DNA from: Candidatus Culexmicrobium cathedralense
GTDB lineage: Archaea; Thermoproteota; Methanomethylicia; Culexarchaeales; Culexmicrobiaceae
Direction: 5' to 3'
NCBI GenBank assembly: GCA_025061115.1
Contig: JANZKC010000003.1
Span: forward strand, 96,001 to 160,000
Length of the DNA: 64,000 nucleotides
This document shows, in pieces, positions 4,425 through 61,016 of this stretch (position 1 is its first letter; each line of letters starts with the position of its first letter). The position numbers were made by a program, and so were the translations under genes. Below the pieces are notes generated by a model. It was not told where the DNA came from. It searched no databases and worked only from the letters and a program-made list of their open reading frames with translations.

Positions 4425-4787
4425 TCAATTAATTGTTAATTCTCTAAGTGAAATAAATGAATTTCTATTAATTTTTCTTTTATTTTTAAATTTAACTCCT
4501 TCAAGTTCGAGCAGCTTCCTCTTAAAATCCACTCCTCCTACGGCAGAATATCCTCCAATTTCGCCATTTGACCTTACAACTCTATGACATGGAATTATGG
4601 GTGCTTCATCGTTCATTTTCATAAGCTTTCCTACTAATCTTGGATTAACACCTAAAGCTAGTGCAAGTTCCTTGTAAGATGTAACCTTACCTATTGGAAT
4701 TAAGAGTAGCAGTGCTTTTGCTGCTTCAAGCATATCTATAATGCCTGCCTTCCTCACATTTCCATTTTCATAAACTAGTAGAGGCAC
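4425..4787 (-). CDS. ogt: methylated-DNA-protein-cysteine methyltransferase (MGMT family)
   Basis: IPxGKVTSY..LA HTH and active-site IPCHRVV, KRKLLELEG. Confidence 0.9.
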   Translation of the reverse strand: MPLLVYENGNVRKAGIIDMLEAAKALLLLIPIGKVTSYKELALALGVNPRLVGKLMKMNDEAPIIPCHRVVRSNGEIGGYSAVGGVDFKRKLLELEGVKFKNKRKINRNSFISLRELTIN

Positions 4788-4799
4788 GCAACCACCGTT

Positions 4800-5228
4800 C
4801 TATAAAGTTTGTTTTATAAGTTTCTGAATTTTCGTCAGGTATCTTGCAATTTTCACGCATTTAGGGTTAATTTCAATGTCTTTTCCATTTTCAATTACTA
4901 TGTGCTTCACATTGAGGTTGCCAACTATCCGCTTGACTTCTTCAAGGGCCATGTGAAGTTGAATGCAGTGAGGTGAACCATCAACAGTTAGTACTACGAC
5001 TTCATCCAACTCAACTCTAGCAGCCATTGAAGCGACTTTAAGAGCAACCATGTTCATGTGCTCTTTTTCCATGCAGACAAATAGTGGAACTCTGCCTTCT
5101 GCATACCTTTCAAATATGTCTTTGTGCTCACTTATTACGCATGAGCCACATATCAACAGCTTACGCTTCTCTCTAATCTCCTTTCCAGCAACATTTACGC
5201 TAAGTAGGTCTCGGATCAAATTTACCAC
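4800..5228 (-). CDS. conserved small Cys/His-containing protein, putative Fe-S or metal binding
   Basis: CGSC, C..EH and VDGSPHC motifs; in the same-strand run after carB. Confidence 0.6.
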   Translation of the reverse strand: MVNLIRDLLSVNVAGKEIREKRKLLICGSCVISEHKDIFERYAEGRVPLFVCMEKEHMNMVALKVASMAARVELDEVVVLTVDGSPHCIQLHMALEEVKRIVGNLNVKHIVIENGKDIEINPKCVKIARYLTKIQKLIKQTL

Positions 5229-5248
5229 CCAATAAAATTATCTATATA

Positions 5249-21542: not shown

Positions 21543-23606
21543 CTACCGCATCAGAAGGGCATATTGAATGAATAATGGAAGTAACGTTATTGAAACTATG
21601 CTGACGAGCTTAATTAATATGTGCAGGCTTGGCCCAGCACTATCCTTTAACGGATCTCCAACCGTATCCCCAATTACTGCTGCTGCATGTTCTGGCGTTC
21701 CCTTACCCCCTAGAAATCCTGACTCTATTAGTTTTTTGGCGTTGTCCCATGCTCCTCCAGCATTGAACATGAATGTTGCTAGAAGTGCTCCTACAATTGA
21801 CGCTGCAACCATGAATGCTGCTAGTATCCATGGCCCGCCAAGGAAACCTACGATTGCTGGAGTTACTAATCCAACCAGTGTTGGCAGAATCATCTTTTCC
21901 AATGCATGCTTTGTGCTTATGTCTACGCATTGCGCGTAGTTAGGCTTCGCTTCGCCTTCAAGAATGCCGGGTATTTCTCTAAATTGCCTCCTAACTTCTT
22001 CAACCATTTCGTGGGCAGCTTTGCTTACAGCTCTGATTATCATGGCTGAGAATATGAATGGAATGGTTGCACCTGTTAGGAAACCTGCGATTGAGAGTGG
22101 GTTTACCACGTTTACTACGATGTCATTAATTGAATTAAGTTCGATGCCAGCATACCTTGCTGCTTCACTTACGTAGGCAAATAGTATTACAACTGTCGTT
22201 AGAATTCCAGCGGCCATAGCGAAGCCCTTCGTTATGGCTTTAGTTATGTTGCCCACGGCGTCGAGCTTGTCCATGGCTTCTTCAACTTCCCTTTCTAAGT
22301 GGGACATTTCGGCTATTCCTGCTGCATTATCTACTATTGGTCCGTAAGTGTCCGATGCCATTATTATTCCTTTCATTTCGGTTAGACCCATGGCTGCTGC
22401 TGCAACTCCAAATATTCCTAATATGTCTCCGCCGAAAATGAGGTATGCAGCTGCTATTGAAAGTGCGACTATTGTCATTGACGGAACTGCGCTTTCAAGA
22501 CCATAAGCCAATCCTATCATGATGTTTACTGCGGGGCTTGATTTGGATGCTAATGCGATGTCTTTTACTGGCTGCCAACTTTCACTAGTATAGTATTGCG
22601 TGACTATAGCTACTACTAGTGCAGTTACCAGTCCAAGCGTTAAGCAGTAGAATAGTCTTATGTCTCTCATGAAGTAAACTGAGACGCAGTAGAATACTAT
22701 TAATGATAGTACGCCTGCAGTTAAGTAGGCAAAGTTTATGCGGTTTATTGGCTTCATCCCGCCCGTAAATCGTATGGCTGCTATACCTGCTATTGTCGCT
22801 AAATTTCCTGTTGACCTTATTAGGAGTGGAAATACAACTGCTTTCCAGCCGTAGACGGGTAGGAATGTCAGTCCTAAAATCATCATGCACACTAGGTTGT
22901 CCGAGCCTGATTCGAATAGATCTGCTCCTCTTCCGGCGCAGTCACCGACGTTATCCCCAACTAAGTCAGCTATGACTGCTGGGTTTCTTGGATCGTCTTC
23001 CGGTATTCCTATTTCAACTTTACCGACAAGATCTGCTCCAACGTCTGCTGCTTTAGTGAATATTCCTCCGCCTACTTGGGCGAAGAGTGCAGTTAAGCTT
23101 GCTCCAAAGCCGAATCCTACTAGTTCGCTTACGACTTCTGGATTGTGGGGGCCGCCTCCGAATATTACGTAAAGCATTGTTACGCCTATTAGGTTTAATG
23201 ACACGATTAATAGGCCAGTTATCCCTCCGCCTCCGAATGCTAAAGTTAAAGCTCTGCGCACTGATGATCTTGCAGCGTTGGTAACTCTGACATTTGTTTT
23301 AACTGCAGCTTTCATTCCTATGTACGTGGCTATCCCTGAGAACAGTGAGCCTAACATGAAGCCGACAGCTATTTCATGTCTCGGCCATAATGCCACTAAT
23401 AGGGTTACTGCTATTGGTACGGAGAAGTATGCTATTGTTTTGAATTCTCGCTTGAGAAAGGCGTTTGCGCCTTCTTCAATATATCCTGCAATTTCTCTCA
23501 TTTTTGGAGTTCCTGTATCTTCTTTTGTAATTGAGTAGTATATTATTGCAACTACTAGCAGTGATAATGCTCCTACACCTAGAGGTATTAGTAGTAGCAC
23601 GTCCAT
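21543..23606 (-). CDS. hppA: membrane-bound ion-translocating pyrophosphatase, K+-independent type
   Basis: [49 protein letters not shown] (Lys at the K+-dependence position), [19 protein letters not shown]. Confidence 0.96.
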
Positions 23607-25022: not shown

Positions 25023-25159
25023 CCTTAAATTTTTATTTTACTGCATTATTTCTTATAAATCTGAACATTCGAATTTCGTAAATTTTTTAAATTCTTGAAG
25101 TATTAGATATTATTCTAAGTGTCGTATAGGAATAAAAGTCTATAAAGGGAGGATTCAAG

Positions 25160-25952
25160 TTGCACGCTGCAGCGATCTTGATTGATGAAATTATAAGGGA
25201 GGGAAGAGGCTCAAGCCTAGTAATACTAATAATGGCGGCAGTATTCTTCTACATTGCATACTACTTGACAAAGATAGGAAGGCCTCCTAGGCTAAGAAGG
25301 TTGGTTGCAATTGTTGCAATAGCTGAAGCTGTTGGAAGAGCTGCCGAGATGGGGAAGCCCGTTCATTACACTCCCGGATACGCTTATGAGAGTATAGCCA
25401 CCCATTAAGGATCGCAAACATTAGCTTCAATAAGCATTTTAGGCTATATTGGCCAGCTTTGCGCTCGATATGATGTGTCAATAATAATTAACAATTCCAC
25501 TGATGGAGGAGACTCTTAGACTAGCTTACTTAAGGGAAGGTAAGCCTGAAAAATTTGACCCTAAGTGCATTAACTATCAGCCGGGGCAATCTCCAATGGT
25601 AACTGCAATTCTAGGGACATTTCAGAGGGAAAGGCCTGCAGCAAACTTCATGATTGGAGGATTGTACTACGAATCGGTGGTTATAGGAGAAGCAGCTAAC
25701 TTCATTGGAGCAATGCAGGTGGGCGGCACTGCAAATACCCACCAAATGCCATTTATCGTTGCGACATGCGACTACGTGCTGCTAGGCGAAGAGCTTTACG
25801 CTGCTGCAGCCTACATATCTAAAGAACCAATACAAATAGCGAGCATTGCAGGAGAAAATTGGATAAAGTTCCTACTTCTAGCCCTAGTTGTCTTGGGAAT
25901 AATCTTGGAGTCAGCAGGATACCCCCTAATAAGCGATTTCCTGAGGTGGTGA
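25160..25952 (+). pseudogene. disrupted DUF6754-type membrane protein (cassette copy 1, gene A)
   Basis: Aligns by eye to 50410-51210. In-frame TAA at 25406-08 where the paralog has Tyr (ATH*GSQT vs DATYGPQT), then a short deletion with frameshift near 25496 (IIINN|PLMEETL vs IVPVRQLSVLPIATEIV). Confidence 0.85.
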
Positions 25953-25956
25953 GATT

Positions 25957-26604
25957 ATGGCAACTGTGTTTAGAAGGGCTGAGATACTAATTTTAATTTC
26001 AGGAATGTTGACGGGATTAATTCTATTCGACTACTTCTTTCCAGTCCCAGGGCTGTCAGATGCAGTTGGCGTAGTCAATACATGGGCGGCGGGAGTATCA
26101 GCATTTGCACTTGCTTTAGGCTTCCTATCTGCAGCGAGAATTCACCTATACTACATTCAAAGGAGAATTCCTGGTAGGTGGCCATTCAGCCTGTGGCTAT
26201 TCATATTGACTGCAGTTCTAACCGTTTCAGGGCTCATTAGCGAAGGATCGCTGCCATATGCTTGGTGCTTTAAATGGGTTTTCACGCCTCTTGGTGCAAC
26301 TCTATACGCCATAACGGGATTCTACATATTCTCAGCAGCTTATAGGGCATTTAGAGCTAGAAGCTTAGAGGCTGGAATTCTATTAGTAGCTGGAATTATA
26401 GTGATGCTCGGCAATACGACTATTGGTGAATTAATTTGGAATCAAATACCAATTATCAACGAGTGGCTTCAATTAACTGGCCAAACTCCTGCAATGAGAG
26501 CTCTTCTATTCACGGCATCACTAGGATTAGTCATCTTCGGATTTAGAGTGCTAATTGGAGCAGAAAGGGGCTATTTAGGCGTATCTGGCGAGGGGGGAAG
26601 CTAG
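25957..26604 (+). CDS. multi-pass membrane protein (cassette copy 1, gene B)
   Basis: About 6 TM; SAAYRAFRAR..EAGILLV.G..VMLGN and G.ERGY shared with 51220-51873. Confidence 0.85.
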   Translation: MATVFRRAEILILISGMLTGLILFDYFFPVPGLSDAVGVVNTWAAGVSAFALALGFLSAARIHLYYIQRRIPGRWPFSLWLFILTAVLTVSGLISEGSLPYAWCFKWVFTPLGATLYAITGFYIFSAAYRAFRARSLEAGILLVAGIIVMLGNTTIGELIWNQIPIINEWLQLTGQTPAMRALLFTASLGLVIFGFRVLIGAERGYLGVSGEGGS

Positions 26605-27474
26605 ATGGCCGAAAAAAGCATTTGGATCAAGCTGGGCGAATTGGATAGAAGAATTCTATACTGGGCTTTAGTAATTGTTCTAGCAGTACTCTTCATTCAT
26701 CCATTGCTTCTGCCAGTTTCAATCTCTGAAACTACCATTTCACTTTACAACTTCATTGAATAATTAGGTCCAGATGACGTTGTAATAATAGGAATTCAAG
26801 CTGGAGTAAGCGCGTGGCCCGAAGTGCTTCCGGGACTAGTAGTAGTTTCAAAACACCTCATTCAAAGGGGTGCCAAGATAATATATTGGGGATTCTCTAT
26901 CGACGTTGACATGACAATGAACGCAATAAAAGCTAGAGTACCGCAACTTAAAGGTCCAAACGAGGCGGCTGGACCTGGGGACTACAAGTATGGTGAAGAC
27001 TGGGTATACTGCGGGCTTCTGCCTCCAGGAGAAGCCACAGTAGCTCAGTTAGCCGACAACATTCATTCCATAATAAAGTATGACAAGTATAGTATACCCG
27101 TTGAGGAATTGCCATTACTACAACGAGTTAAAAGCGCAAAGGATGTTTCATTAGTAATAACCTCAGACACTGGCGATTATGGTGATTATTACATCAGGCA
27201 TTGGAATGCAAGATACAATACTCCAATAGCTGAAGTTGGAATAGCAATGATTTACTCGAGCTACATGACGTACTATCAAACAGGTCAAGTGATAGGCCTG
27301 CTTAAAGGTTGCAGAGGTGGAGCAGAATACGAGAGGCTGACAGGTGCAATAGGAGAGGGAACACGGAGAATGGATGCGCTTAATGCATCTCACTTACTAA
27401 CGATCTTCGCAGTTATAATTGCCAATCTAAGCTATTTCGCTACAAAGAAATCTAGGAGTGGAGGTGGATCGTAA
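26605..27474 (+). pseudogene. membrane-anchored protein with nonsense codon (cassette copy 1, gene C)
   Basis: ATG 26605 follows the gene B stop directly; reads MAEKSIWIKLGELDRRILYW..., in-frame TAA at 26761-63 (FIE*LGPDD vs paralog YIENLPPGS), then continues in frame into ORF 26824-27474. Confidence 0.85.
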
Positions 27475-28116
27475 ATGCCCTACCCAACTGAGCCTTTAGA
27501 ATTACTCGGCGCGTGGACAGGAGCTTTATTGACCGTAATGGTCTACAGCTACGTGCTTTATAGAGAAAATGTAGCTTTCAGATTTGCCGAGCACACGTAC
27601 ATCGCAACTTCATTTGCAGTTGCAATAGTGCAAGCTGTTAGGCTTATCAAGAATAACATAATCATCCCATTAAGCAAAGGTGAAGCAATATACATCGTTC
27701 CAGTAATTTTAGGCTTCATGCTATACACGCTGCCCTTCAGGCGCTACAGGTGGATAAGCCGCTATCTAGCAGCCTTCCTAGTTGGCGTAGGTTTAGGATT
27801 ATCAATAAGAGGAACATTAACTGCGCAAATCGTTATGCAAATTCTTGGCTCAATATCAGCGCCAGGTGCAGGTGCAACACCTCTAGATTGGTTCAACTTC
27901 CTTTGGATAGCTCTAGGCTTCGTACTCATAACCATGTACTTCACCTTCACAGTAGAGCATGCCGGTCTGTACTACTATCCTACGAAGCTTGGGAGATACT
28001 TGCTAATGCTGGGCTTAGGCGTATACTTCGGCAATACAGTTCAATTCAGAATGGCAATGCTATCAGGCAGAATTCAGTACTTACTGCAAGTATTCAAAAT
28101 AATTCCATGGCCGTAA
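27475..28116 (+). CDS. multi-pass membrane protein (cassette copy 1, gene D)
   Basis: About 6 TM; T..VYS...REN..R.AEH and R.....GR.Q.LL shared with 52750-53502. Confidence 0.85.
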   Translation: MPYPTEPLELLGAWTGALLTVMVYSYVLYRENVAFRFAEHTYIATSFAVAIVQAVRLIKNNIIIPLSKGEAIYIVPVILGFMLYTLPFRRYRWISRYLAAFLVGVGLGLSIRGTLTAQIVMQILGSISAPGAGATPLDWFNFLWIALGFVLITMYFTFTVEHAGLYYYPTKLGRYLLMLGLGVYFGNTVQFRMAMLSGRIQYLLQVFKIIPWP

Positions 28117-28290
28117 ACAACCTAAATTTTCTACATCAATTTTTACTTACTAGAAATACTTATAATTTAAAATAAATTCAATTCCATAATTAGTCACTTA
28201 TGTGCATTTAAAAGTAAATTTAAAGTGCTTCTCAGAAAATTTAAATCGCTTAACATTAAATTAGAAGTGTATTACTTGGAGGCTTAAGAT

Positions 28291-28809
28291 TTGGCGGAGG
28301 CAGTTACTGTCCTTACAAAAATTGCTCAGCTAGAATTATTGAGAAGATTACTGAAAGTTCCAGGTGATCAAAATCCCCTCAGTTGCATGCAATGTGGAAA
28401 GTGCACTAGTGGATGCACAATAATGGTTTTACTTGAAAATTATCCTCATAGAGTTGTTGATAGAGTTAGGCTAGGCTTAATTGAAGACTTATTAAAATCA
28501 GATGTAATTTGGGCTTGTACTCAGTGTTTAAAGTGCAAGGAAGCTTGTCCCCAGAAGGTTTCACCAATGGAAGTTTTCCTAGCTCTCAGAAATCTAGCTA
28601 TATCTGGAGGTGCAAGTCTCCCTGAATCCTACATGAAAATGCTGGCGACAGCCATTGAAACAGGTTTCATTCAAGAGCCCCTTGAAGTTGTTGGGAGAGA
28701 TGGAAAATCCTATAAGAGAGAGGACCTAGGCCTCCCACCGATAAGCGGCCCGAAAAAACTGGATGTTTTCCAGTTAACAATTATGAAGGCGTTTGAGAAA
28801 AGTCCATGA
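28291..28809 (+). CDS. hdrC: heterodisulfide reductase subunit C-like
   Basis: CMQCGKCTSGC and IWACTQCLKCKEACP; upstream of hdrB. Confidence 0.87.
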   Translation: MAEAVTVLTKIAQLELLRRLLKVPGDQNPLSCMQCGKCTSGCTIMVLLENYPHRVVDRVRLGLIEDLLKSDVIWACTQCLKCKEACPQKVSPMEVFLALRNLAISGGASLPESYMKMLATAIETGFIQEPLEVVGRDGKSYKREDLGLPPISGPKKLDVFQLTIMKAFEKSP

Positions 28810-28819
28810 GGTGGCGCAT

Positions 28820-29701
28820 GTGAAGTATGTTATCTATCCAGGATGTCTTACATTGACCGAGCAGTACGCTTATGAGCTATCCACTAGAAGAGTTTTTGAA
28901 GCTCTTGGAATAGAGCTACTAACTCCAGAAAACATCTCCTGCTGCGGTGCTCCTCTCAGGAGTGTAAACGCGTATGGCTGGATCTATCTTGCAGCTAGGA
29001 ATATGGCAGTCTTAGAGGATGAGGAAGCTCCAGCCATGATATTGTGCAACTGGTGCCATCTTTCATTTACTCATGCAAGAAAGCTTCTAAGTGAAAAGGA
29101 AGAACTTAGATTGTGGGTTAATGAGTTGTTAAAAGAGGAGGACTTGGAGTATAGGGGTGATTTAGAATTTAAGCATCTCGTAGAAGTGCTTCACGATGAC
29201 ATAGGCATTAAAGTAATTGCTGAATCAGTCAAAGTTAAACTTGAAAGCCTAACTTTATCACCGCATTCAGGTTGTCAATTAATAAGGCCAACTGAATTGG
29301 GGAGGCCCGACAACTCAGTTAATCCAGTAAAGCTATCAAATCTCATAGAAGCACTTGGAGCTAAAGCCGTAAGGCACGTTGGAGAGCTAGAGTGCTGTGG
29401 GTGGGCTATATATAAGACTAGAGTGGATGCTGGACTAACCCTAGCTGGCAATAGAATTAAAGCAGCTTCAGACGCCAAGGTTGATGGAATGATTGTTGTA
29501 TGCCCGCATGGAGCTGAAATGCTTGATGGAATGCAGAGTGAAGCTGGGAAGGCTATTGGATCAAAGTTGGAATTACCAGTACTCTACTACACGCAGTTAT
29601 TGGGATTAGCGCTAGGCATAGAGCCGAAAGAACTTGGATTGCAACTAAATCGATCTCCTGTTGAAAGAATTTTGGAAAGAATATCCATTAACTCTAGTTG
29701 A
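28820..29701 (+). CDS. hdrB: heterodisulfide reductase subunit B-like (CCG domains)
   Basis: YPGC, SCCG, CNWC, HSGC, ECCG, CPHG, LPVLYYTQLLGLALG. Start GTG 28820 after GAGGTG; the ORF track gives 28793. Confidence 0.88.
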   Translation: MKYVIYPGCLTLTEQYAYELSTRRVFEALGIELLTPENISCCGAPLRSVNAYGWIYLAARNMAVLEDEEAPAMILCNWCHLSFTHARKLLSEKEELRLWVNELLKEEDLEYRGDLEFKHLVEVLHDDIGIKVIAESVKVKLESLTLSPHSGCQLIRPTELGRPDNSVNPVKLSNLIEALGAKAVRHVGELECCGWAIYKTRVDAGLTLAGNRIKAASDAKVDGMIVVCPHGAEMLDGMQSEAGKAIGSKLELPVLYYTQLLGLALGIEPKELGLQLNRSPVERILERISINSS

Positions 29702-46445: not shown

Positions 46446-48227
46446 TTATTTAATTAGCTCCCTAATCCACGCATCCAAAATCTTCTCTCCAAACTTTACT
46501 GTAACATGCTTAAACTCTCTTTCGAATTCCTTTGATTTTTCTTCAACCATTTCTTTAAGCTTCACAATTTCCTCCATCTCCTTAAGCAATAGTTTCTGAG
46601 CTTCTTCAACGCTTATCTCCTTGAAATTCACTGTCTTTCCGGGCTTAGTTTGGGCAAGCCTTCCAATATCAACCTGAATTACAGTTGCAATGATCGGGTA
46701 TCCTCCAGTAGTCTGAGCGTCAGCCATTAGCACTATTGGATTTCCATCTGGAGGTACTTGAACTGCTCCAATTGTGGTTCCGCATGAAATTAACCTACCT
46801 TTGCCCTTAACGTGCCTTATCTTAGGACCTGCTAGCCTATACCCCATTCTATCCACGTGAGGTGTAACTTCGAATTCGCTGTTCAGGAAATCCATTATCG
46901 ACTTTCTTGAGAAGCATTGCGTGTGAGGGCCTAAAATGACTCTAACTTCAACTTTGCCAAGATAATTCGCTTTGCTTAGTTGTGCCGGAATTTTTCTTGC
47001 TGGACAGCTATTGACGATTGATTTGAATTTATTCTCTGCTACATGTATTACTGTGCCTCCAGTTATCCTCCTTCCAATGTTAGCTCTTAAGTAATGCGAT
47101 TTACTTCCCAAAACTTTATTCTCCGAAATTCCTCCGGCAATTGCAATATATGCCACTTGACCATCAATGAATCTCTCCACTAAAATTTCACTTCCCTTAC
47201 GCACTGGCACTGCCTGCATTAATGGAATTTTTTCATCGTTAACGGTGACCTGGATTTTTGCTCCAGTAATTGCAATAATTAGATCGTCCATAGCTTTGAA
47301 CGATGCTGTGCTTTGGAAAAGCTCTATGCAAGCTTCATCAACATCATTTCCAACAAGTATATTTGCAATAGCTAAAGCTTTCCTATCAAGAGCTCCTGAA
47401 ACAGGCACTCCATATTTCCTAAATCCTATTCTTCCTAAGTCTTGTATGCTAACTCCTAAGCCTGCCGATATCACTTTAAGTGCCGGCTTTCCTTTAATTG
47501 CCGGTAAAACCTTCTCTTCTTCAACTTTCTCCTTTAACTTCTCATATTCCTCCTCGGTTATTGGCTTGAATTTAACTAGGTCTCCAGCTTTAAGGAGGGT
47601 TGGCGGATCCTTATTTGGGTTGAATAGCTTTAGTGGAGTTCTACCAATTATCCTCCAACCCCCTGGACTTTCAACAGAATATATTCCTGTCTCCTTGCCA
47701 GCTATACCTACAGACCCTGCAGGAACTCTTAGCCTTGGTTTTTCAAGTCTAGGCGCAGCAATAATTTCAGGGACTTCCCCCATGTAAGTGAATCCCGGCG
47801 TGAAGCCAATCATGTAAACTAGGTATGTTTGGCTTGAATGTATCTTGATAACTTCGTCGCAACTTATGCCCGCATACTTTGCTACATATTCAAGGTCTGG
47901 TCCGAACTGCTTTCCATAGACTACGGGAACTTCAATCAGCCTTTTCTCTCCAATCGCCCTTTCAACTCCTTCAACTCGAACTTCCTTTTCAGCTTCTTCT
48001 ACAGCTTTGCATACTTCCTCGAACGAAATGATTGTCGGGTCATAGTGTACAAGCAGTGTTGTATATGCTGGAACTAGCTCCACAATGCCCTTCAATTTCT
48101 TGGCCTCAACTTTTCGCATTAATGCTAAAACATAGTTATTTGCTTCTCTGCTTATTTCTTCAGCAACTTCAACTAAAACTGCAGATTCGCCCATTGGCAT
48201 TAACTTGAACTTCTCATGTATCGGCAA
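46446..48227 (-). CDS. fused PxpB-PxpC (KipI-KipA / urea-carboxylase CT-like) protein
   Basis: N-half VPAYTTL, GPDL..VA, IGFTPGF.Y, PAGSVGIAG..TGIY...SPGGW..IGRT; C-half QDLGR.G....GV..SGALD, DRMGYRL, G.VQVP.DG.PI.L.AD.QTTGGYP. Confidence 0.92.
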   Translation of the reverse strand: MPIHEKFKLMPMGESAVLVEVAEEISREANNYVLALMRKVEAKKLKGIVELVPAYTTLLVHYDPTIISFEEVCKAVEEAEKEVRVEGVERAIGEKRLIEVPVVYGKQFGPDLEYVAKYAGISCDEVIKIHSSQTYLVYMIGFTPGFTYMGEVPEIIAAPRLEKPRLRVPAGSVGIAGKETGIYSVESPGGWRIIGRTPLKLFNPNKDPPTLLKAGDLVKFKPITEEEYEKLKEKVEEEKVLPAIKGKPALKVISAGLGVSIQDLGRIGFRKYGVPVSGALDRKALAIANILVGNDVDEACIELFQSTASFKAMDDLIIAITGAKIQVTVNDEKIPLMQAVPVRKGSEILVERFIDGQVAYIAIAGGISENKVLGSKSHYLRANIGRRITGGTVIHVAENKFKSIVNSCPARKIPAQLSKANYLGKVEVRVILGPHTQCFSRKSIMDFLNSEFEVTPHVDRMGYRLAGPKIRHVKGKGRLISCGTTIGAVQVPPDGNPIVLMADAQTTGGYPIIATVIQVDIGRLAQTKPGKTVNFKEISVEEAQKLLLKEMEEIVKLKEMVEEKSKEFEREFKHVTVKFGEKILDAWIRELIK

Positions 48228-48311: not shown

Positions 48312-48839
48312 TTGAGTGTGCGCGGTGAGGAGGACAAGTTTAAAACAAAGCTGGCAGCACTACTTGCAGCAGTTAATTTCTGGCTCAAGCATGAAGGCAA
48401 AGTTGAGCCAACTCTAAAGGTCAAAGTTGAAGATGAAGAGTTTTCAGCTACTATAACGCAATTAGGAGAGCGGGAGTTCGAAATTGAAGTTGATAGGGAG
48501 AAGTTTAAAGTCAAGCATACCCCTGATTTGATTGCAATAACTCAAGCAATAGTTCCGAAAGAACGTAAAATTGCATTGCCGAAAGCTGTGAAGCCAAAAT
48601 TAACTCTTGAAGAAGGTGAAGTCCTCGTTAAAGCTCAGACAGCAGGTAAAATAATCGAAATTCTAGTTAAAAGCGGAGATGAAGTTAAAGAAAATTCGCC
48701 ACTAATAATAATAGAAGCCATGAAAATGGAGCTTGAAGTAACTGCGCCTCATCCAGGCAGGGTGCGAAAAATCCTTGTAAAAGTTGGAGATGAAGTTAAG
48801 ATTGGAGATCCCCTCATAATATTGAAGAAATCTAAATAG
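48312..48839 (+). CDS. biotin carboxyl carrier protein
   Basis: EAMKM biotinylation motif in the C-terminal domain; N-terminal LAALLAAV helix and beta-rich segment. Confidence 0.9.
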   Translation: MSVRGEEDKFKTKLAALLAAVNFWLKHEGKVEPTLKVKVEDEEFSATITQLGEREFEIEVDREKFKVKHTPDLIAITQAIVPKERKIALPKAVKPKLTLEEGEVLVKAQTAGKIIEILVKSGDEVKENSPLIIIEAMKMELEVTAPHPGRVRKILVKVGDEVKIGDPLIILKKSK

Positions 48840-48852
48840 CAGGTGACTTACC

Positions 48853-50268
48853 GTGGTTAAAATCACGGACTTAACCTTGAGAGATGCCCACCAATCCCTA
48901 CTTGCAACTAGAATGAAAACTGAAGATATGTTGCCAATTCTGGAAAAAATGGACCAGATAGGATTTTATGCGATGGAAGTTTGGGGTGGAGCAACTTTCG
49001 ATGCTCCATTAAGATACCTACGTGAAGATCCTTGGGAGAGACTAAAGAAAATAAGGAGCATAGTGAAGAAGACCAAGCTTCAAATGCTATTGAGAGGTCA
49101 AAACCTAGTTGGTTATCGCCACTATCCAGATGATGTTTGCATAGCGTTTGTTGAAAAGGCTTACGAGAATGGAATAGACCTCTTTAGAATTTTCGACGCT
49201 TTAAACGACCTAAGAAACCTTGAAGTAACAGTTAAAACTGCAAGAAAAGTTGGAGCTGAAGTTCAAATATGCATGGTTTACACCACAAGTCCAGTGCACA
49301 CTGTGGATTATTACATTGATTTAGCAAGGGAGATAGCCGCCATGGAAGTCGACTCAATAGCCATCAAGGATATGTCAGGCATTTTAGAGCCTTATGTAGC
49401 TTACGAGCTAGTTTCAAGAATCAAACGTGAAGTGAAAATTCCAATAAATATTCACTCTCACACAACTGCTGGATTAGCTCCAATAACACTAATTAAGGCA
49501 GTTGAGGCTGGAGCGGATATAATTGACTGCGTAGTTTCATCAATGTCCATGCACACCTCTCACCCACCCGCAGAAACCATAGCAGTAGCGCTTAGAGGCA
49601 CACCATACGACCCAAAGTTAGACTTAAAATTGTTATTCAAAGTTTCAAGGTACTTCTGGAGGGTACGGCAAAAATATAAGGAATACGACTATGCCCTTAG
49701 AAACCCGCCAGTCGATGTTAGAGTAATTGAGCATCAAATTCCAGGAGGAATGTACAGCAACCTTCTAGCTCAATTGAGACAGCAAGCTGCCGAGGATAAA
49801 TTAGGTGAAGTGCTTGAAGAAATACCTAGAGTTAGAAAAGATTTAGGTTGGCCTCCGCTTGTAACGCCACTATCTCAAATAGTTGGCACGCAGGCGGTTG
49901 TAAACGTACTGATGGGAGATAGGTATAAGCTAATAATCAAAGAGGTGAAGGATTACATTAAAGGATTTTATGGGCGGCCGCCAGCTCCAATTAACCCTAA
50001 CTTAATAAAGAAAGCTTTAGGAGATGAAAAACCAATCAAATGCAGACCTGCAGACTTACTAAAACCAGTACTATCCGAAGTTAAAAGAAAACTGCCAAAA
50101 GACCTCGTACAAAAAGAGAAGGATTACTTGACTTACGCAATATTCCCAGAAGTTGCAATGGACTTCTTCAAGTGGAGAAAGCGATTTCTCGAGAGAAAGA
50201 TTGAAGAGTATGAAGTGATGGTGCCGGGGTCGAAGTTTAAGGTCATAGTGGAGGAAGACATAAAATAA
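48853..50268 (+). CDS. pyruvate/oxaloacetate carboxyltransferase (PycB/OadA/transcarboxylase 5S family) without a biotinyl domain
   Basis: DLTLRDAHQSL.ATR, WGGATFD, QMLLRGQN.VGY, IKDMSG, HSH, HQIPGGM.SN, PPLVTP.SQIVG.QA. Confidence 0.93.
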   Translation: MVKITDLTLRDAHQSLLATRMKTEDMLPILEKMDQIGFYAMEVWGGATFDAPLRYLREDPWERLKKIRSIVKKTKLQMLLRGQNLVGYRHYPDDVCIAFVEKAYENGIDLFRIFDALNDLRNLEVTVKTARKVGAEVQICMVYTTSPVHTVDYYIDLAREIAAMEVDSIAIKDMSGILEPYVAYELVSRIKREVKIPINIHSHTTAGLAPITLIKAVEAGADIIDCVVSSMSMHTSHPPAETIAVALRGTPYDPKLDLKLLFKVSRYFWRVRQKYKEYDYALRNPPVDVRVIEHQIPGGMYSNLLAQLRQQAAEDKLGEVLEEIPRVRKDLGWPPLVTPLSQIVGTQAVVNVLMGDRYKLIIKEVKDYIKGFYGRPPAPINPNLIKKALGDEKPIKCRPADLLKPVLSEVKRKLPKDLVQKEKDYLTYAIFPEVAMDFFKWRKRFLERKIEEYEVMVPGSKFKVIVEEDIK

Positions 50269-50409: not shown

Positions 50410-51210
50410 TTGAACCCCCTAATATTCGAAATTGTAAAGGAAGAAAGGAACGCTCCACTATTAATGCTAATAATAATAATGGGCGCAGCATTTTACTTCA
50501 TTCAAAGAGCTAAAAGAGGAGTAGTTCCAAAGATAAGGCGAGTTCCGGGATTAGATGCCATTGATGAGGCAATTGGAAGAGCAACTGAAATGGGCAGACC
50601 CGTATTCTGCTCCCACGGAATCGCAAACATTTCAGACGCTACATATGGGCCTCAAACCATTGCAGGACTAGGCGTTTTAAGCTACGTAGCGCAAATGTGC
50701 GCAAGATATGGAGCAAGATTAATTGTGCCAGTTAGGCAACTAAGCGTATTGCCAATCGCAACTGAAATTGTTGAAACAGCATATAAGTTGGAGGGCAAGC
50801 CCGAGCAATTTAGAAAAGAAGATATTATGTACCTCTCACCATGGCAGTTCGCCTACTCTCTCGCCTACATGAGCTTGATGGAGCGAGAGAGGGCGGCTGC
50901 AAACATTATGGTCGGCGCTTACTGGGCTGAGTCACTGCAATTAGCGGAAACTGGATATAGGATAGGAGCAATACAAGTTTCAGGTACGGCCAACACCCAC
51001 CAAATACCATTCTTCGTAGTAGCAACCGACTACTGCCTAATAGGTGAAGAAATCTACGCTGCAGGTGCATATCTATCCAAAGATCCACTGCAAATTGCAA
51101 GTATTGTAGCTCAGGACGTTGGAAAATACATTGCGATAATTATCGCACTTATAGGAGCACTACTGACGACAGGAGGAATAGATTGGGTTGTAAAAGCTCT
51201 CCAATCTTAG
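50410..51210 (+). CDS. DUF6754-type membrane-anchored protein (cassette copy 2, gene A)
   Basis: TM, then IRRVPGLDAIDEAIGRATEMGRP, soluble domain, GTANTHQIPFF...DY.LIGEE.YAAGAYLS, TM. Confidence 0.85.
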   Translation: MNPLIFEIVKEERNAPLLMLIIIMGAAFYFIQRAKRGVVPKIRRVPGLDAIDEAIGRATEMGRPVFCSHGIANISDATYGPQTIAGLGVLSYVAQMCARYGARLIVPVRQLSVLPIATEIVETAYKLEGKPEQFRKEDIMYLSPWQFAYSLAYMSLMERERAAANIMVGAYWAESLQLAETGYRIGAIQVSGTANTHQIPFFVVATDYCLIGEEIYAAGAYLSKDPLQIASIVAQDVGKYIAIIIALIGALLTTGGIDWVVKALQS

Positions 51211-51219
51211 GGGTGAGGG

Positions 51220-51873
51220 TTGGTGGCATGGTATAAACGTGTCGAAATCCCCATAATTATAACAGTAATATGCGCACTCCTTCAAATAGTTCCATACTAC
51301 CTAGACGTGCCGCAGTGGGAAGCAGTTGCAGACGACTTCAATGAATGGTCACTCGTAGTATTGACAACAGCTCTCTTCCTAGGAGCTGGCTCACTTTACT
51401 TGCTTCACATTCCAAGAGTTAAAAGACAAAGACCAGGATGGGAGTTCAGCGTAATTCTATTAGTAATAATGACAATATCGATAATCGCCGGACTACCAAT
51501 TCCTCAAATTGGACTTGGTTTATCAAATGATGTATATCAGTTTATCTATAACAACATGACTGTAGCGCTATCTTCAACAATGTATTCAATATTGGCATTC
51601 TTCATAACCTCAGCAGCCTACAGAGCATTCAAAGCTAGAAACATAGATGCAGCAATACTGCTGGTTAGCGGCACCCTAGTAATGCTTGGCAACGCACCAA
51701 TAGGAACAGCTACATGGGCAGGATTTGGCGACATCAAGAATTGGCTATTCGATGTACCGAACTTAGCAACTATGAGAGCAATTAGAATTGGAGCAGCACT
51801 AGGCACACTTGTGCTGGCTGCAAGAACATTCATGGGAGTCGAGAGAGGCTACTTCAGAGGCGGAGGTGAGTAA
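51220..51873 (+). CDS. multi-pass membrane protein (cassette copy 2, gene B)
   Basis: SAAYRAFKAR..DAAILLVSG..VMLGNAP.G, GVERGY. Confidence 0.85.
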   Translation: MVAWYKRVEIPIIITVICALLQIVPYYLDVPQWEAVADDFNEWSLVVLTTALFLGAGSLYLLHIPRVKRQRPGWEFSVILLVIMTISIIAGLPIPQIGLGLSNDVYQFIYNNMTVALSSTMYSILAFFITSAAYRAFKARNIDAAILLVSGTLVMLGNAPIGTATWAGFGDIKNWLFDVPNLATMRAIRIGAALGTLVLAARTFMGVERGYFRGGGE

Positions 51874-51874
51874 A

Positions 51875-52750
51875 ATGGGTGAAAATGAAGTAACTATTTG
51901 GGAAAAACTGGAGAACGTTGATAGGAGAATAATATACTTACTACTGTGGATAGTAGTTCTAGCACCGCTCATAAGCCCACTAAACTTGCCAGTTTCAATA
52001 AGTGAAGAAACAAAGATAGCATATCAATACATCGAAAATCTTCCTCCAGGAAGCGTGGTTGTAGTTTCACTTGACCATAGTTTTGCAGGGATGCCGGAGC
52101 TATATCCACACGACGTCGCGTTTCTACATCACCTATTCTCAAAGCCAGTTAAGATAGTTATAATAGCAATTTGGCAAGAAGGATCATTAGTCGCAGATGT
52201 TGCATTAAAGGAGCTTGCCGGAGGAGAGGACCCAAGAACAGGGATAGAGAAAATCTATGGAAAGAAGTATGGTGAAGACTGGGTATTTCTCGGATGGGTT
52301 CCAGGCGGAGAAACAGGAATGAGAGTTCTCGGACAAGATATGCACACTGCAGTTCCAGCAGACTTCTGGGGTACACCTATAACTGAATTTCCAATGATGG
52401 CTGACATAAAGACAGGCGAGGATGTAGATCTCCTCGTTACCATTGAATCGGGAACTCCAGGTGCTCCAGAGTGGATAAGACAGTGGTGGTCTGTCTATCG
52501 GACTCCAATCATCTGCGCAATAGTTGCCGTAGGTGCACCTGAGCTTGTACCAGCTAGACAAGCCGGGCAGCTAGTTGCATTGTTGCCAGGAGTTAGAGCT
52601 GCTGCCGAATACGAGCAACTTATTAAAAGACCAGGTCTAGGAACATCCCAAGCAGACGCCCTATCAACAAGTCACATACTAGTAATAATTTTCGTAATTA
52701 TAGGCAATATCGGCTACTTCAGCCTTAAAGCTAAAGGGGTGAGAAAGTAA
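51875..52750 (+). CDS. membrane-anchored protein with large soluble domain (cassette copy 2, gene C)
   Basis: ATG 51875 after GGAGGTGA; DRRIIY-TM, YGEDWVFLGWVPGGE, G.RAAAEYE.L, DALSTSH, TM. Confidence 0.85.
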   Translation: MGENEVTIWEKLENVDRRIIYLLLWIVVLAPLISPLNLPVSISEETKIAYQYIENLPPGSVVVVSLDHSFAGMPELYPHDVAFLHHLFSKPVKIVIIAIWQEGSLVADVALKELAGGEDPRTGIEKIYGKKYGEDWVFLGWVPGGETGMRVLGQDMHTAVPADFWGTPITEFPMMADIKTGEDVDLLVTIESGTPGAPEWIRQWWSVYRTPIICAIVAVGAPELVPARQAGQLVALLPGVRAAAEYEQLIKRPGLGTSQADALSTSHILVIIFVIIGNIGYFSLKAKGVRK

Positions 52751-53502
52751 TGGCTGAGCCAATTGAAGTTTTGGGAACGGCGGTTGCAGTACTATTCACT
52801 CTAGCTGTATATAGCTTCACGTACCGAGAAAATCCCTGGTCAAGATTAGCCGAGCATGTATTCGTAGGATCTGCAGTTGGCGTTCAAATAGCTATAGACT
52901 TTGACTGGCTAGTAAATAAAGCATATCCAGAGTGGGTTGGAGACCCGGCGAAAGCACCATTCTTCTGGATTGCCATTCTATTCGGCTTACTATACTACTT
53001 CTACTTCACAAAGAGATACTTCTGGCTATACAGATTCCCATTAGCAGTGTCAGTAGGCACTGGATTGGGCTTAGCAGTTAGCAGAGTAGTTAAAACTGAA
53101 TTCGTCGATCAAATAAGAGCTACTGCAGGCCTAGCATGGTACATGCCTGATGATCCGCTTGGAAGCTTCAACAACTTCCTAGTAGTAATTTCATTAGCAA
53201 CAGTACTAATATACTTCATATACAGCTATGAACTAAAAGGATCTTCAAGATTAGTCTTAACCTATGCTAGATGGATAATGATGGCCGGCTTCGGTGCGGC
53301 ATACGGCTACACCGTAATGACGAGAATGTCACTATTCATCGGCAGATGCCAATTCTTGCTAGGCATTCCTCCAAATCCACCCGAAGCCAAACCACTATTC
53401 GCAGTATTTGCAATAATAATCCTCGCAAGCCTACTAGGATACGATTACTATAAAAAGATGAAAACTACTGCTGAAGCTACAGCTACACCAACATCCTCCT
53501 AA
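52750..53502 (+). CDS. multi-pass membrane protein (cassette copy 2, gene D)
   Basis: TAATG coupling; TLAVYSF.YRENP..RLAEH.FVG, GFGA.YG.TVM.RM.L.IGR.QFLL. Confidence 0.85.
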   Translation: MAEPIEVLGTAVAVLFTLAVYSFTYRENPWSRLAEHVFVGSAVGVQIAIDFDWLVNKAYPEWVGDPAKAPFFWIAILFGLLYYFYFTKRYFWLYRFPLAVSVGTGLGLAVSRVVKTEFVDQIRATAGLAWYMPDDPLGSFNNFLVVISLATVLIYFIYSYELKGSSRLVLTYARWIMMAGFGAAYGYTVMTRMSLFIGRCQFLLGIPPNPPEAKPLFAVFAIIILASLLGYDYYKKMKTTAEATATPTSS

Positions 53503-58635: not shown

Positions 58636-60312
58636 TTAAATGGCAAATAACGATATTGCTCTTGACAGTACTTTTTCTCCTCTGTATTCTGGTAGCAATA
58701 TTGGTGATTTTCTTGTTGGCGGTATTTTCGCTTCTTTCAGCATTTCAACGTAGCGGTTAACATGTTTTAGGGATAGCTTGCCTGGCTCGACGTTTTGAAC
58801 GTATTTTGCAGCTGAAATTCCGGCAATTCTACCGAAAACAGTTACTTCTAATAGTGAATTGCCCATTAATCTATTCTTTCCGTGAACTCCTCCGCAGACT
58901 TCGCCTGCTGCGAAGAATCCTAGTATTGGTTCTCCACGTCCATTTAGTACTTGGGCGTTAACGTTTATTTCAACTCCTCCATTCATGTAGTGCAGTGTTG
59001 GGAATACGAGGACTGGTTCTTTGGTTGGGTCAATGCCGAATCTGCTGAACATCCTGTAGATTGCAGCTAGCGATTTCTTTATTGTTCCTTCACCGTGAAT
59101 CATTTCTATCATTGGAGTGTCTAGCCAAACTCCTCTCATTCCTGTTGGAGTTATTACTCCCTTGTTTCTGCCGTAGCATTCTCTAATAATTGCAGCTGCA
59201 ACTACGTCTCTTGGCTCTAGTGGGTAGATGAACTGCTCTCCGTCAGCATTTACTAGCTGAGCACCTAATCCTCTAACTTTTTCTGTTACGAGCAGGCCTA
59301 CTATCTGCTCCGGATAGGCTGCCCCAGTTGGATGATATTGCGTTGCATCAAGATCTCTTAGTCTTGCTCCAACTCTGTAAGCCATTACTACTCCATCCAT
59401 TGTTGCGCCATAGTGGTTGGTTGTTGGGAAGTTTTGAATGTGAAGTCTGCCAAATCCTCCTGTTGTTAGAATGACTGCCTTTCCTCTAGCTATGCGGTAC
59501 TCTTTAGTCTCTAGATTCCATAGAACTGCTCCAGTAACTCTTCCTGTATCTGGCTCGGTTAAAAGTTCAACTGCAGGCGAGAACTCGACGACGCGAATGC
59601 CTCTATTTAAAACTTCATCCATTAGAACTCGCATTATTTCAAGTCCTGTGTAGTCCTTGCATGCATGTAGCCTCTTTCTACATGTTCCTCCACCAGAAAG
59701 CTCTATCATGTTTCCTTCTTCATCCTTGTCGAACATCACTCCAAGATCTTCAAGCCACTTTATTATGAATGGAGCATTTTCAACTAGAGTTTTTACCAGT
59801 TCCGGCTTATTCGCATAGTGTCCTCCACCCATGACATCTATAAAGTGAAGTATTGGACTGTCATTTGGCCTGTCGGCAGCCTGTATTCCTCCTTGAGCCA
59901 TCTTGGTATTTGCATCTCCAAATCTGAGTTTAGTGGCAATTAGAATTCTATCGGCTGGAATTCCACTATTATTTGCCCATAAAGCTGCTGAGGCTCCAGC
60001 TCCTCCTCCACCTATAATTAATATGTCCACATCATAGTCGATTTTACTTAAGTCTATGTTGCTTGGGTCAATTAGTGGATAAGCTTCAATTAGGTCTGCA
60101 ACTTCATGAGGTACAATTAAACCTTTACTTGGACCAATTTTCAGCGGCCTCTTCCCTTCAGGCCTATAATCTGGGTGCCACTCCTTCAAGAGCTTATCCT
60201 TCTCTTCAGGTGATATTCTTGGAAAAGCTTCTTTCAACCTTCTATCTCTAGTCTCTTCAACTTTCTCTATTGACCGTCTCATTTCCTCCGAATATGTACT
60301 TTCGTAAGTCAT
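58636..60312 (-). CDS. fumarate reductase/succinate dehydrogenase-family flavoprotein (soluble, TfrA-like)
   Basis: GGGGAG, NTKMAQGG, QYHPTG, TEKVRG.G, PRDVVA, HYMNGG, GGVHGKNRLMGNSL. Confidence 0.9.
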   Translation of the reverse strand: MTYESTYSEEMRRSIEKVEETRDRRLKEAFPRISPEEKDKLLKEWHPDYRPEGKRPLKIGPSKGLIVPHEVADLIEAYPLIDPSNIDLSKIDYDVDILIIGGGGAGASAALWANNSGIPADRILIATKLRFGDANTKMAQGGIQAADRPNDSPILHFIDVMGGGHYANKPELVKTLVENAPFIIKWLEDLGVMFDKDEEGNMIELSGGGTCRKRLHACKDYTGLEIMRVLMDEVLNRGIRVVEFSPAVELLTEPDTGRVTGAVLWNLETKEYRIARGKAVILTTGGFGRLHIQNFPTTNHYGATMDGVVMAYRVGARLRDLDATQYHPTGAAYPEQIVGLLVTEKVRGLGAQLVNADGEQFIYPLEPRDVVAAAIIRECYGRNKGVITPTGMRGVWLDTPMIEMIHGEGTIKKSLAAIYRMFSRFGIDPTKEPVLVFPTLHYMNGGVEINVNAQVLNGRGEPILGFFAAGEVCGGVHGKNRLMGNSLLEVTVFGRIAGISAAKYVQNVEPGKLSLKHVNRYVEMLKEAKIPPTRKSPILLPEYRGEKVLSRAISLFAI

Positions 60313-60323
60313 ACATTCACCTC

Positions 60324-61016
60324 CTACGTTTCGATCTCCCTCGACTCATAAAGCTTCTTCAACTCCTCAATGCTCATTTTAGTTAGCTTTTCCAGTTCCT
60401 CCTTGTACTTGCCTTGAAGTATTTCATTTATCCTCTCTTCTAAGTGCTTGGCCTTCTTGGATAAGTACTTTCCATAAAGCCTTCTAACTAGCTGGAAAAC
60501 TTGGTAGTGAACTATTTCCGCTGGACATCTAATGCTACATATTCCACAAGCTATGCAGTCGAAGCTTAGTTCAGCTGCTTTAATTAAATTTCCTCTAATT
60601 AGTGATTGAATTGCATCCATAACTTCCAGGTTTTGTGGGCAAGACTTGGTACATGTATTGCAAGCAACGCACCTAGTTATTTCGGGGAATATGGAGAGCA
60701 CGGTTGAAGCAGTTGGCCTCAGCTTTTCAATATCGTATTTTGGCTTTTCAGCTGGAACGAACGGTATCTGAACTAGGTACATTCCCTCTTGAACTGTTGT
60801 TTGGCATGCAAGTCCAGTATATAACTTATAATCATTCCCAATTCTATACACGGTTGCACATGCTCCGCAGAATCCGCCTCTGCATCCGCATCCTCGAATA
60901 AATTTGTAGCCTGCATACTCCATTGCCTTCATTATGGTTAGTCCTTCTGGAACTTCGTACATTTTGCCCATGATGTATATTTTAACCATCTTAATTTTCT
61001 TCTCTTCATTACTCAT
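60324..61016 (-). CDS. 2Fe-2S plus two-4Fe-4S iron-sulfur subunit (SdhB/TfrB N-terminal-like)
   Basis: GCRGGFCGAC...LAC; CVACNTCTKSCP; CIACGICSIRCP. Confidence 0.88.
   Translation of the reverse strand: MSNEEKKIKMVKIYIMGKMYEVPEGLTIMKAMEYAGYKFIRGCGCRGGFCGACATVYRIGNDYKLYTGLACQTTVQEGMYLVQIPFVPAEKPKYDIEKLRPTASTVLSIFPEITRCVACNTCTKSCPQNLEVMDAIQSLIRGNLIKAAELSFDCIACGICSIRCPAEIVHYQVFQLVRRLYGKYLSKKAKHLEERINEILQGKYKEELEKLTKMSIEELKKLYESREIET

Follow-up and report, generated by a model that had tools for sequence, protein, structure and literature searches.

The stretch of DNA analyzed here, hereafter the window, comprises 64,000 nucleotides of Candidatus Culexmicrobium cathedralense (contig JANZKC010000003.1, positions 96,001 to 160,000) and carries a cassette of four same-strand genes, A, B, C and D, which the initial annotation had described as a candidate new transporter or ion-coupling complex (Table 1, copy 2). 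The four genes are real and their coordinates correct. A and B are spaced by 9 nt, with a GGGGTGAGGG stretch rich in purines; 1 nt lies between B and C, and C and D share a 1-nt overlap; the genes are translationally coupled. A longer TTG frame for C starting at 51809 was rejected, as it overlaps B and is unmatched in relatives. A second place in the window, 25160-28116 (copy 1), has these four genes in unchanged order, with a similarity to copy 2 that is far above chance (tblastn E values of 4e-51 for A, 1e-33 for B, 1e-52 for C and 4e-23 for D), and every motif that had been quoted for the four genes is found in both copies.

Table 1. Genes of the two window cassettes, their neighbors, and associated genes and RNA elements at other loci. 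Coordinates are those of the window unless a locus (L) is named; ORF, open reading frame.
Feature	Location	Strand	Length	Remarks
Copy 2, subunit A (DUF6754)	50410-51210	+	266 aa	ORF; TTG start
Copy 2, subunit B	51220-51873	+	217 aa	ORF; no Pfam, NCBIfam or PDB match
Copy 2, subunit C	51875-52750	+	291 aa	ORF; from ATG at 51875
Copy 2, subunit D	52750-53502	+	250 aa	ORF; no Pfam, NCBIfam or PDB match
PxpB-PxpC fusion	46446-48227			Urea-carboxylase carboxyltransferase type; divergent to BCCP and carboxyltransferase
BCCP (biotin carrier)	48312-48839	+		Upstream of copy 2
OadA/PycB-type carboxyltransferase	48853-50268	+		Upstream of copy 2
Copy 1, A pseudogene	25160-25952	+		In-frame TAA at 25406-25408; 17-nt deletion (frameshift) at ~25490-25491
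Copy 1, B	25957-26604	+	215 aa	Open; 35% identity to copy 2 B, E=1e-33
Copy 1, C pseudogene	26605-27474	+		In-frame TAA at 26761-26763 (codon 53)
Copy 1, D	27475-28116	+	213 aa	Open; 30% identity to copy 2 D, E=4e-23
GlmL-like ATPase, host genome	L087 9203-11059		618 aa	PF13941 end to end, E=2e-120
Barrel-sandwich partner, host genome	L087 8028-9197		389 aa	
T-box leader	L090 3642-3897			110.3 bits, gathering score 93; upstream of intact operon
T-box leader	L045 14047-14326	-		105.1 bits, gathering score 93

Subunit A belongs to PF20539 (DUF6754): its match (E=1.7e-86; 290 bits, gathering cut-off 27) runs from position 5 to position 255 of the 257-position model. This Pfam entry, a catalogue family without a function, covers A alone; there is no model for B, C and D, and none of the three has a meaningful match in Pfam or NCBIfam. 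The best match to a PDB sequence from a profile of any of the four subunits had E=0.046, B and D fell only into unnamed or "hypothetical" clusters of the ESM Atlas, and a literature search found no publication mentioning DUF6754, PF20539, PF13941 or "GlmL-like". The picture of a membrane module made up of four subunits, complete in itself and without an assigned function, is thereby borne out, and no confident match to a characterized complex came from the Pfam, NCBIfam, PDB and Foldseek searches of A-D.

The host genome (1.98 Mb in 25 contigs, 99.99% complete by markers) gave five DUF6754 matches in a PF20539 profile search and contains four cassettes, three of them intact: copy 2 and two further ones on contig C1 (copies 3 and 4), in addition to the decaying copy 1. 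Beyond it, we found 377 relatives of A, counting one genome per species, and analyzed the best 79 distinct loci, in which B, C and D were located with profiles built from the genome's own proteins. The nearest of the 377 matches comes from a Candidatus Methanomethylicia metagenome-assembled genome (71% identity), followed by Bathyarchaeia, Bacillota, Eisenbacteria, Zixibacteria, Ignavibacteria and Planctomycetota. The order A-B-C-D on one strand is kept in 74 of the 79 loci; four of the other five end at a contig edge and the last is a 2.2-kb contig. The four genes thus co-occur in other genomes, in tandem arrays of two or three cassettes at 14 of the 79 loci, and the same order was seen at 62 of 80 loci in a second set drawn from metagenomes. 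Carriers include archaea as well as monoderm and diderm bacteria, with three to nine diverged cassettes in genomes of 1.7-2.0 Mb; nine cassettes of ~3 kb in 1.9 Mb, as in genome G204, take up ~1.4% of such a small genome. Among 1.84 billion representative clusters, a profile of C matches 5649 at E≤1e-3, of which 2134 reach E≤1e-30. The system is sparse in the host phylum, where A matches occur in 4 of 201 sampled genomes.

AlphaFold2 models of A and C, built from 78-sequence alignments, show in both proteins a transmembrane (TM) helix, a six-stranded alpha/beta domain and a second TM helix (pLDDT of 94.5 and 96.2, respectively), in agreement with the earlier description of the two subunits, and family hydropathy profiles likewise agree with about six TM helices in B and in D, with an optional seventh in D. 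Foldseek retrieved nothing from the PDB at E≤1e-3 with either model. The top hits, those of the A domain among them, were to generic SIS, USP-like and Rossmann folds, all of them weak (query TM-score at most 0.35), and the best solute-binding-protein match of the C domain was non-significant (E=4.7e-3, TM-score 0.17). Across 78 sequences, residues G56, R57, E60, G62, G169, E174, G186, D207 and E214 of A are invariant; in B, aligned over 79 sequences, SAAYRAFRxR is conserved where TM4 ends on the cytoplasmic side; C conserves AEYE, D..S..H and GN close to or within its last helix; and D conserves RENxxRxAEH in its first cytoplasmic loop and GRxQF close to its end.

The orientation of the subunits was derived from lysine and arginine (K+R) frequencies summed over the family alignments. 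In A, the flanks of the domain score 5.9 versus 1.5 and 1.0 for the termini, which supports an N-out first TM helix, a cytoplasmic alpha/beta domain and a C-terminal TM helix. In C, the short termini score 2.2 and 3.4 versus 2.6 for the domain flanks, supporting an N-in first TM helix and an extracytoplasmic alpha/beta domain ahead of the C-terminal TM helix. B reads as N-in and C-in (11.2 for the odd, inside loops versus 3.9 for the even, outside ones), while D appears to be N-out, less clearly than B is oriented (7.2 versus 4.8). The placement of the A domain inside and the C domain outside, initially deduced from the positive-inside rule in single proteins, is therefore upheld family-wide. 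These orientations make the topologies of (A,B) and (C,D) mirrored, as had been proposed under the name of pseudo-symmetric inverted halves, but a common descent of the two halves is not detectable: an internal duplication linking A to C and B to D was given probabilities of 1.35% and 0.6% by hhalign, and BLASTP found nothing. The likeness of A and C is limited to the order of secondary-structure elements.

An external location of the C domain fits a relative, P0039, whose soluble domain is interrupted by a CARDB domain (29.2 bits, cut-off 22.7), the insertion consisting of ~560 amino acids of CARDB-type repeats. Helical inserts occur in P0096 and P0075, P0006 has the whole domain twice in tandem, and P0041 is extended at its C terminus; the external domain of C tolerates large insertions. 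While such inserted and duplicated variants were seen in the representative search, a search for longer homologues found no fused forms of C, which is weak evidence. Bacterial forms of A have an extra N-terminal part of ~145 amino acids outside the DUF6754 domain. A fibronectin type III (Fn3) domain considered for it was rejected, as Pfam gave DUF6754 alone in five of five long forms of A, and three long forms of D had no Pfam match.

To find genes that recur with the cassette, we clustered the neighbors of the 79 loci. Two families stood out, both usually directly upstream of the cassettes: a long GlmL/MutL-type ASKHA protein (PF13941) and a protein of ~390-450 amino acids with weak matches to the barrel-sandwich domains RnfC_N and NqrA_N, present within 10 kb at 32 and 35 of the 79 loci, respectively. 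An apparent neighbor cluster of 811 amino acids proved to be a shadow ORF, lying antisense across the genes of the GlmL protein and its partner. The host genome encodes a single pair of the two proteins, on C1 (a contig other than that of the window) at ~242-245 kb, far from every cassette, preceded by a gene for a 134-amino-acid membrane protein. The ATPase family has the invariant stretches DxGSTTTK, DIGGATTD and GSGG, which we take to be the phosphate-1, phosphate-2 and adenosine motifs of the ASKHA fold. A role of the partner as a lipoyl- or biotinyl-type swinging-arm carrier was rejected, its 39 aligned sequences having no conserved Lys at the hairpin.

The distribution of the ATPase follows that of A. 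Among the 201 genomes of the host phylum, full-length PF13941 matches (E≤1e-118) occur in exactly three, the same three that encode a full-length A; all 197 genomes devoid of any A match lack one, and the sole other PF13941 match at cut-off in this sample is a fragment of 52 positions (26.8 bits). Cassettes or A matches outnumber long GlmL-like genes by 4:1 in the host, 7:1 in G080 and 9:2 in G204, the long GlmL-like proteins of the latter being 654 and 610 amino acids in length, alongside a 469-amino-acid gene product and a weaker 577-amino-acid match. Conservation among the four subunits is highest in A (mean column identity of 42%, versus 39% for B, 37% for C and 34% for D), as expected if all paralogues fit one ATPase, and own-genome paralogues are 45-48% identical in A and 37-41% in C.

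A physical contact between the two proteins is predicted as well. Modeled as a complex, the GlmL-like protein and residues 33-238 of A gave a score of 0.62, the best of three controls reaching 0.01; of 80 solved complexes 58 attained that score, as did 2 of 110 mismatched pairs, a calibration that is rough, as custom alignments were used. Runs agree in at least 93% of contacts, with a partner pLDDT of at least 79. The predicted interface on A consists of residues 53-63 (EAxGRAxEMGRP), 99-101, 183-188 and 203-209 and contains six of the nine invariant residues; 11 of its 22 columns are conserved at 90% or more, versus 37 of 184 elsewhere (Fisher p=0.0035). On the other side, it includes the invariant GGxDGG loop (167-172) of the ATPase. 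The invariant EAxGRAxEMGRP face of A is thus predicted to dock the GlmL-like ATPase.

A pointer to the substrate comes from Bacillota relatives. T-box leaders carry a specifier codon that is followed by a purine. A scan of 88 loci against the Rfam riboswitch models found two such leaders above the gathering score (Table 1). In L090, recovered by a metagenome search with the A protein of L045, the leader precedes an operon that consists of A, B, C and D only (3998-6828), with convergent genes after it. In L045, whose A protein is 82% identical to that of L090, the leader ends 94 nt before the A gene of a cassette lying beside an intact one. The two leaders have an identical 8-nt 3' specifier bulge, GAAAUACA, and stem I around it differs between them by compensatory paired changes; the fold energy of stem I is no better than that of shuffled sequences (z=-0.6), the element resting on its Infernal score. 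By the Rfam structure line and the purine rule, the specifier codon is UAC (tyrosine), followed by A. T-box-controlled genes described by Wels et al. (2008; PMC2494555) are those for tRNA ligation, amino-acid biosynthesis and amino-acid transport, and the specifier has been used, as stated there, to assign substrates to transporters of seven families (MFS, APC, NSS, DAACS, LIVCS, NhaC and ABC). B, C and D have no Pfam match to any of these seven. An operon made of ABCD only, under a T-box responding to uncharged tRNA-Tyr, would most simply encode an importer that supplies tyrosine. The archaeal window itself contains no T-box.

From gene order, copy number, co-occurrence with the ATPase and the T-box leaders of relatives, we infer a transport function. 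The reading we favor, with a probability of roughly 55%, is that ABCD is an interchangeable uptake unit for amino-acid-type substrates that docks via A on a shared actin-fold ATPase. B and D, inserted N-in and N-out, would form the path through the membrane. The alpha/beta domain of C, whose external location is supported by the charge bias, may be the part that meets the substrate, and the A domain, inside the cell, would present its EAxGRAxEMGRP face to the ATPase, a contact for which the co-occurrence is observed and the docking predicted by modeling. A single ATPase with its barrel-sandwich partner could then serve all cassettes of a cell, the ATP-driven closure of the ASKHA fold being passed through A to B and D. 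Of the two halves of the original suggestion, the transporter stands as the best reading, and nothing speaks for ion coupling.

Several observations weigh against this reading. No subunit resembles a known transporter by sequence or fold in the Pfam, NCBIfam, PDB, Foldseek and ESM Atlas searches, and we know of no ASKHA ATPase that acts as a transport motor. The genes around the cassettes, apart from GlmL and its partner, are heterogeneous, and no cassette adjoins the ATPase operon in the host genome. The fourth genome of the phylum with an A match, G093, carries a fragment of A at the edge of a contig and lacks a GlmL-like match. The score of the complex expresses model confidence and not a measurement, and conserved columns are not overrepresented on the GlmL side of the predicted interface (5 of 27, versus 228 of 590). 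The T-box link is confined to two of the 88 scanned loci, both of one lineage; one of these two cassettes, that of L045, is degenerate (A and a D fragment), and the close relatives L092, L093, L094 and L095 (70-74% identical) have no T-box at the gathering score. The register of the specifier follows the Rfam structure line and the general purine rule.

Carried further, the data could describe a so far undescribed class of primary active importers, in which an ASKHA motor, rather than an ABC, P-type or V/F-type ATPase, and a barrel-sandwich partner energize many units with a substrate each, tyrosine or a source of tyrosine being the substrate of the T-box-controlled Bacillota copy and copy 2, in its archaeal order, maybe also feeding or coupling to a biotin enzyme; this fuller proposal is tentative and falls somewhat short of even odds. 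If it is true, a whole class of transport machines has been missed in archaea and at least six bacterial phyla, with the first actin-fold ATPase to drive solute uptake, and the nutrient use predicted for many uncultured anaerobes would change. The T-box link offers a testable substrate, tyrosine, for one copy, and the co-occurrence of A and the ATPase, together with the predicted interface, points to residues for mutation. For the window genome, the corrected annotation comprises three intact cassettes, a fourth in decay and a single ATPase operon for all of them.

The motor candidate has described relatives. It matches PF13941 end to end, the family of GlmL/MutL, the accessory protein of B12-dependent glutamate mutase, and of the Or-4 relative from ornithine degradation, but the cassette ATPase is ~150 amino acids longer (618 amino acids) and always paired with the barrel-sandwich-hybrid protein. 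A bacterial member scored 219.7 and 214.8 bits, far below the equivalog cut-offs of 475 (NF040745) and 600 (NF040744), and the host ATPase gene has no adjoining mutase genes. As a working analogy only, the arrangement recalls the ECF transporters, in which dispersed, diverged, substrate-specific units share one energizing module that is encoded once; unlike these, the cassette has no match to EcfA, EcfT or an S-component and no ABC ATPase, and consists of four subunits with an external domain. ABC importers with tethered binding domains likewise combine an external alpha/beta domain, two polytopic subunits and a cytoplasmic ATPase, whereas the motor here has an ASKHA fold and the C domain lacks a significant solute-binding-protein match; A-D have no ABC_tran or BPD_transp match at E≤1 and no Walker A motif.

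A likeness to Nqr and Rnf lies in the weak NqrA_N and RnfC_N barrel-sandwich matches of the ATPase partner, and in the two 6-TM subunits of ~200 amino acids with opposite orientation alongside a single-pass subunit with an external domain, which presumably resemble NqrD, NqrE and NqrC. The membrane subunits of Rnf and Nqr have conserved Cys pairs for an intramembrane Fe-S center. A-D gave no match to these families at E≤1 and have no conserved Cys, flavin or Fe-S motifs: each subunit contains one to three Cys, B and D one each, with no conserved Cys column in B and D. In line with the view that this is neither an ABC transporter nor a redox complex, the motifs GxxxxGK[ST] (Walker A), CxxC, CxxCH and Cx2Cx2C are all absent from A-D.

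An ion-coupled device is one alternative, to which the neighborhood of copy 2 lends some color. ABCD would then be a secondary transporter or an energy-converting module, with the GlmL-like protein as an accessory for assembly or regulation. Directly upstream of copy 2, on the same strand, lie the genes of a biotin carrier and an OadA/PycB-type carboxyltransferase, an arrangement of biotin carrier, carboxyltransferase and membrane genes that recalls the Na+-translocating oxaloacetate decarboxylase (OadA, OadB and OadG). Its membrane subunit family, OAD_beta (PF03977), matched neither A-D nor anything in the whole genome, while a control search matched in Thermotoga and Bacteroides. Nor did the whole genome give any match to Biotin_carb_N, Biotin_carb_C or Carboxyl_trans, for which control genomes matched, leaving it without a biotin carboxylase and a 12S carboxyltransferase, and Biotin_carb_C occurs in none of five related genomes. 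The biotin enzyme beside copy 2 therefore lacks its usual partners, and the cluster may represent a transcarboxylase that works independently of a carboxylase, or a decarboxylase with a membrane partner of unfamiliar type. In the ion-coupled alternative, copy 2 would, in this archaeal order, serve the biotin enzyme as its membrane partner, in place of the missing OadB-type pump subunit.

The block of HMG-CoA reductase, PxpBC, biotin carrier, carboxyltransferase, ABCD and DUF917 genes is kept beside the orthologous cassette in G080 and L008, where the orthologues are 68-69% identical for the carboxyltransferase and 47% for D, and conserved Arg, Glu, His and Asn residues lie at or within membrane helices of B, C and D. 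Yet the block is syntenic in these two genomes only; the closest Bathyarchaeia orthologues (A 60-64% identical) do not have it, nor do 77 of the 79 loci, and the carboxyltransferase neighborhood is a lineage-specific synteny of one archaeal order. The spacer between the carboxyltransferase and A measures 141 nt and is AT-rich, with a run of T right after the carboxyltransferase stop, suggesting that the cassette has a separate transcript, and the divergent PxpBC-type carboxyltransferase offers the biotin enzyme an alternative, transcarboxylase-type partner. Ion coupling would leave the other cassettes and the strict co-occurrence with the ATPase unexplained, and no Na+ or H+ site is known. We regard an ion-coupled device, with copy 2 as a stand-in for an OadB-type pump, as unlikely.

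Other neighbors bear on the chemistry of the substrate. Downstream of copy 2 lie genes for a DUF917 protein, a sugar-nucleotide transferase, GlmS and a hydantoin-type racemase, and behind copy 3 a creatininase-family gene follows at 56 nt, in addition to an M20 gene. The PxpBC fusion, the DUF917 gene and the hydantoin racemase adjoining the window copy hint weakly that it may take up cyclic amides or other amino-acid derivatives. Elsewhere, peptidase and amidohydrolase neighbors (M20 five times; S58, M55 and M81 once each) make up a loose theme, and the 125 same-strand neighbors from other loci fall into 124 different Pfam families, with no conserved enzyme neighbor. The original hint at transport of organic acids or amino-acid derivatives is thus retained in part: a weak pointer to amino-acid derivatives remains, while the synteny from which it was drawn exists in two related genomes only and the neighbors at large are heterogeneous.

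The same genes would suit a cassette that anchors the GlmL-like protein and its partner at the membrane for ATP-dependent chemistry on a substrate instead of pure transport, such as group translocation or, by analogy with the hydantoinase and oxoprolinase relatives of GlmL, the opening of lactam or hydantoin rings. The weak Hydantoinase_A matches of the PF13941 proteins would agree with such a role, as would the presence near host cassettes of PxpBC, DUF917 (S-Me-THD-like), hydantoin racemase and creatininase genes, the nucleotide- or phosphosugar-binding type of fold to which the A domain weakly points, and the predicted contact of A with the ATPase. Those fold matches are, however, non-significant (none at E≤1e-3), no subunit has a known catalytic motif, the cyclic-amide neighbors are not conserved, and the T-box context suits the supply of an amino acid better than its breakdown. 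On balance, a chemical role of this kind seems improbable to us.

A machine for the envelope or for export, handling a surface protein, lipid or polymer instead of a nutrient, is still less probable. The N-terminal extra part of bacterial A and the CARDB repeats in one relative of C would be at home in such a machine, and in Eisenbacteria-type loci (L055, L056, L061, L069, L073, L082 and L083) a recurring set of genes downstream of tandem cassettes encodes an LplA-like lipoate-protein ligase, a receptor of the TonB-dependent type, and proteins resembling PorV/PorQ and PorZ. Three to nine diverged copies in genomes of 1.7-2.0 Mb, and carriers among archaea, monoderm and diderm bacteria alike, argue against it, and induction by uncharged tRNA through a T-box would be unexpected for an exporter. 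In the same Eisenbacteria-type loci, GcvP genes are often found upstream.

Copy 1 is, unlike copy 2, not intact: it carries two in-frame TAA stops and a 17-nt deletion (Table 1). For a comparison of strains, contigs from four other public runs (X2-X5) were aligned to 25100-28200. One contig of run X2 spans this whole region with 36 substitutions and 18 gap letters, as from a related strain. Position 25406 is C in X2 and X4, turning TAA into CAA; 17 extra letters stand behind 25491 in X2 and X5; and 26761 is A in X2 and X5, turning TAA into AAA. An extra G behind 27091, within the C gene, is found in X2 and X4. With the X2 differences applied, the A gene becomes one open frame of 277 amino acids and the C gene breaks at codon 163. 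Because a contig of X3 matches the window exactly across 25468-25623, the 17-nt deletion cannot be put down to faulty assembly of a single sample; the two TAA stops, which lie outside that contig, are supported by the window assembly alone. The two co-existing strains have different inactivating lesions in one and the same cassette, which marks copy 1 as turning into a pseudogene. Between the strains, synonymous and non-synonymous substitutions number 3 and 5 in the B gene and 2 and 2 in the D gene of copy 1.

All three internal stops of copy 1 being TAA, an alternative genetic code was considered and rejected: the positions are sense codons in related strains, a frameshift lies alongside, and TAA also terminates copy 2 B and the adjacent carboxyltransferase gene. 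On one side of copy 1, a gene at 21543-23606 (minus strand) encodes a 687-amino-acid polytopic protein that looks by eye like a membrane pyrophosphatase (GDNVGD-type motif); on the other, at 28291-29701, the initial labels and the sequences point to an acyl-CoA dehydrogenase-like gene and two HdrC/HdrB-like genes.

Two further riboswitch hits were judged unrelated to the cassettes. At L060 5761-8774, a thiamine pyrophosphate (TPP) element 4 kb upstream of the cassette heads thiXYZ-like ABC genes, from which A is separated by 1.1 kb; in L048, a flavin mononucleotide (FMN) element lies 6.5 kb downstream. A ThiD/ThiN-like gene stands tail to tail with host copy 4 (L007 6411-7754), and one same-strand Phos_pyr_kin neighbor occurs elsewhere; a link of the cassettes to thiamine precursors is probably a coincidence. 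About 9 kb from the GlmL-like operon, at G000:C1 232490-233645, a gene for PxpA (LamB_YcsF, E=1.5e-104) is directly followed by one with a biotin/lipoate protein ligase domain, on a different contig from the PxpBC fusion that adjoins the BCCP gene. Within the window, the minus strand at 58636-61016 encodes an FAD_binding_2 flavoprotein and a protein of the 2Fe-2S/4Fe-4S type.

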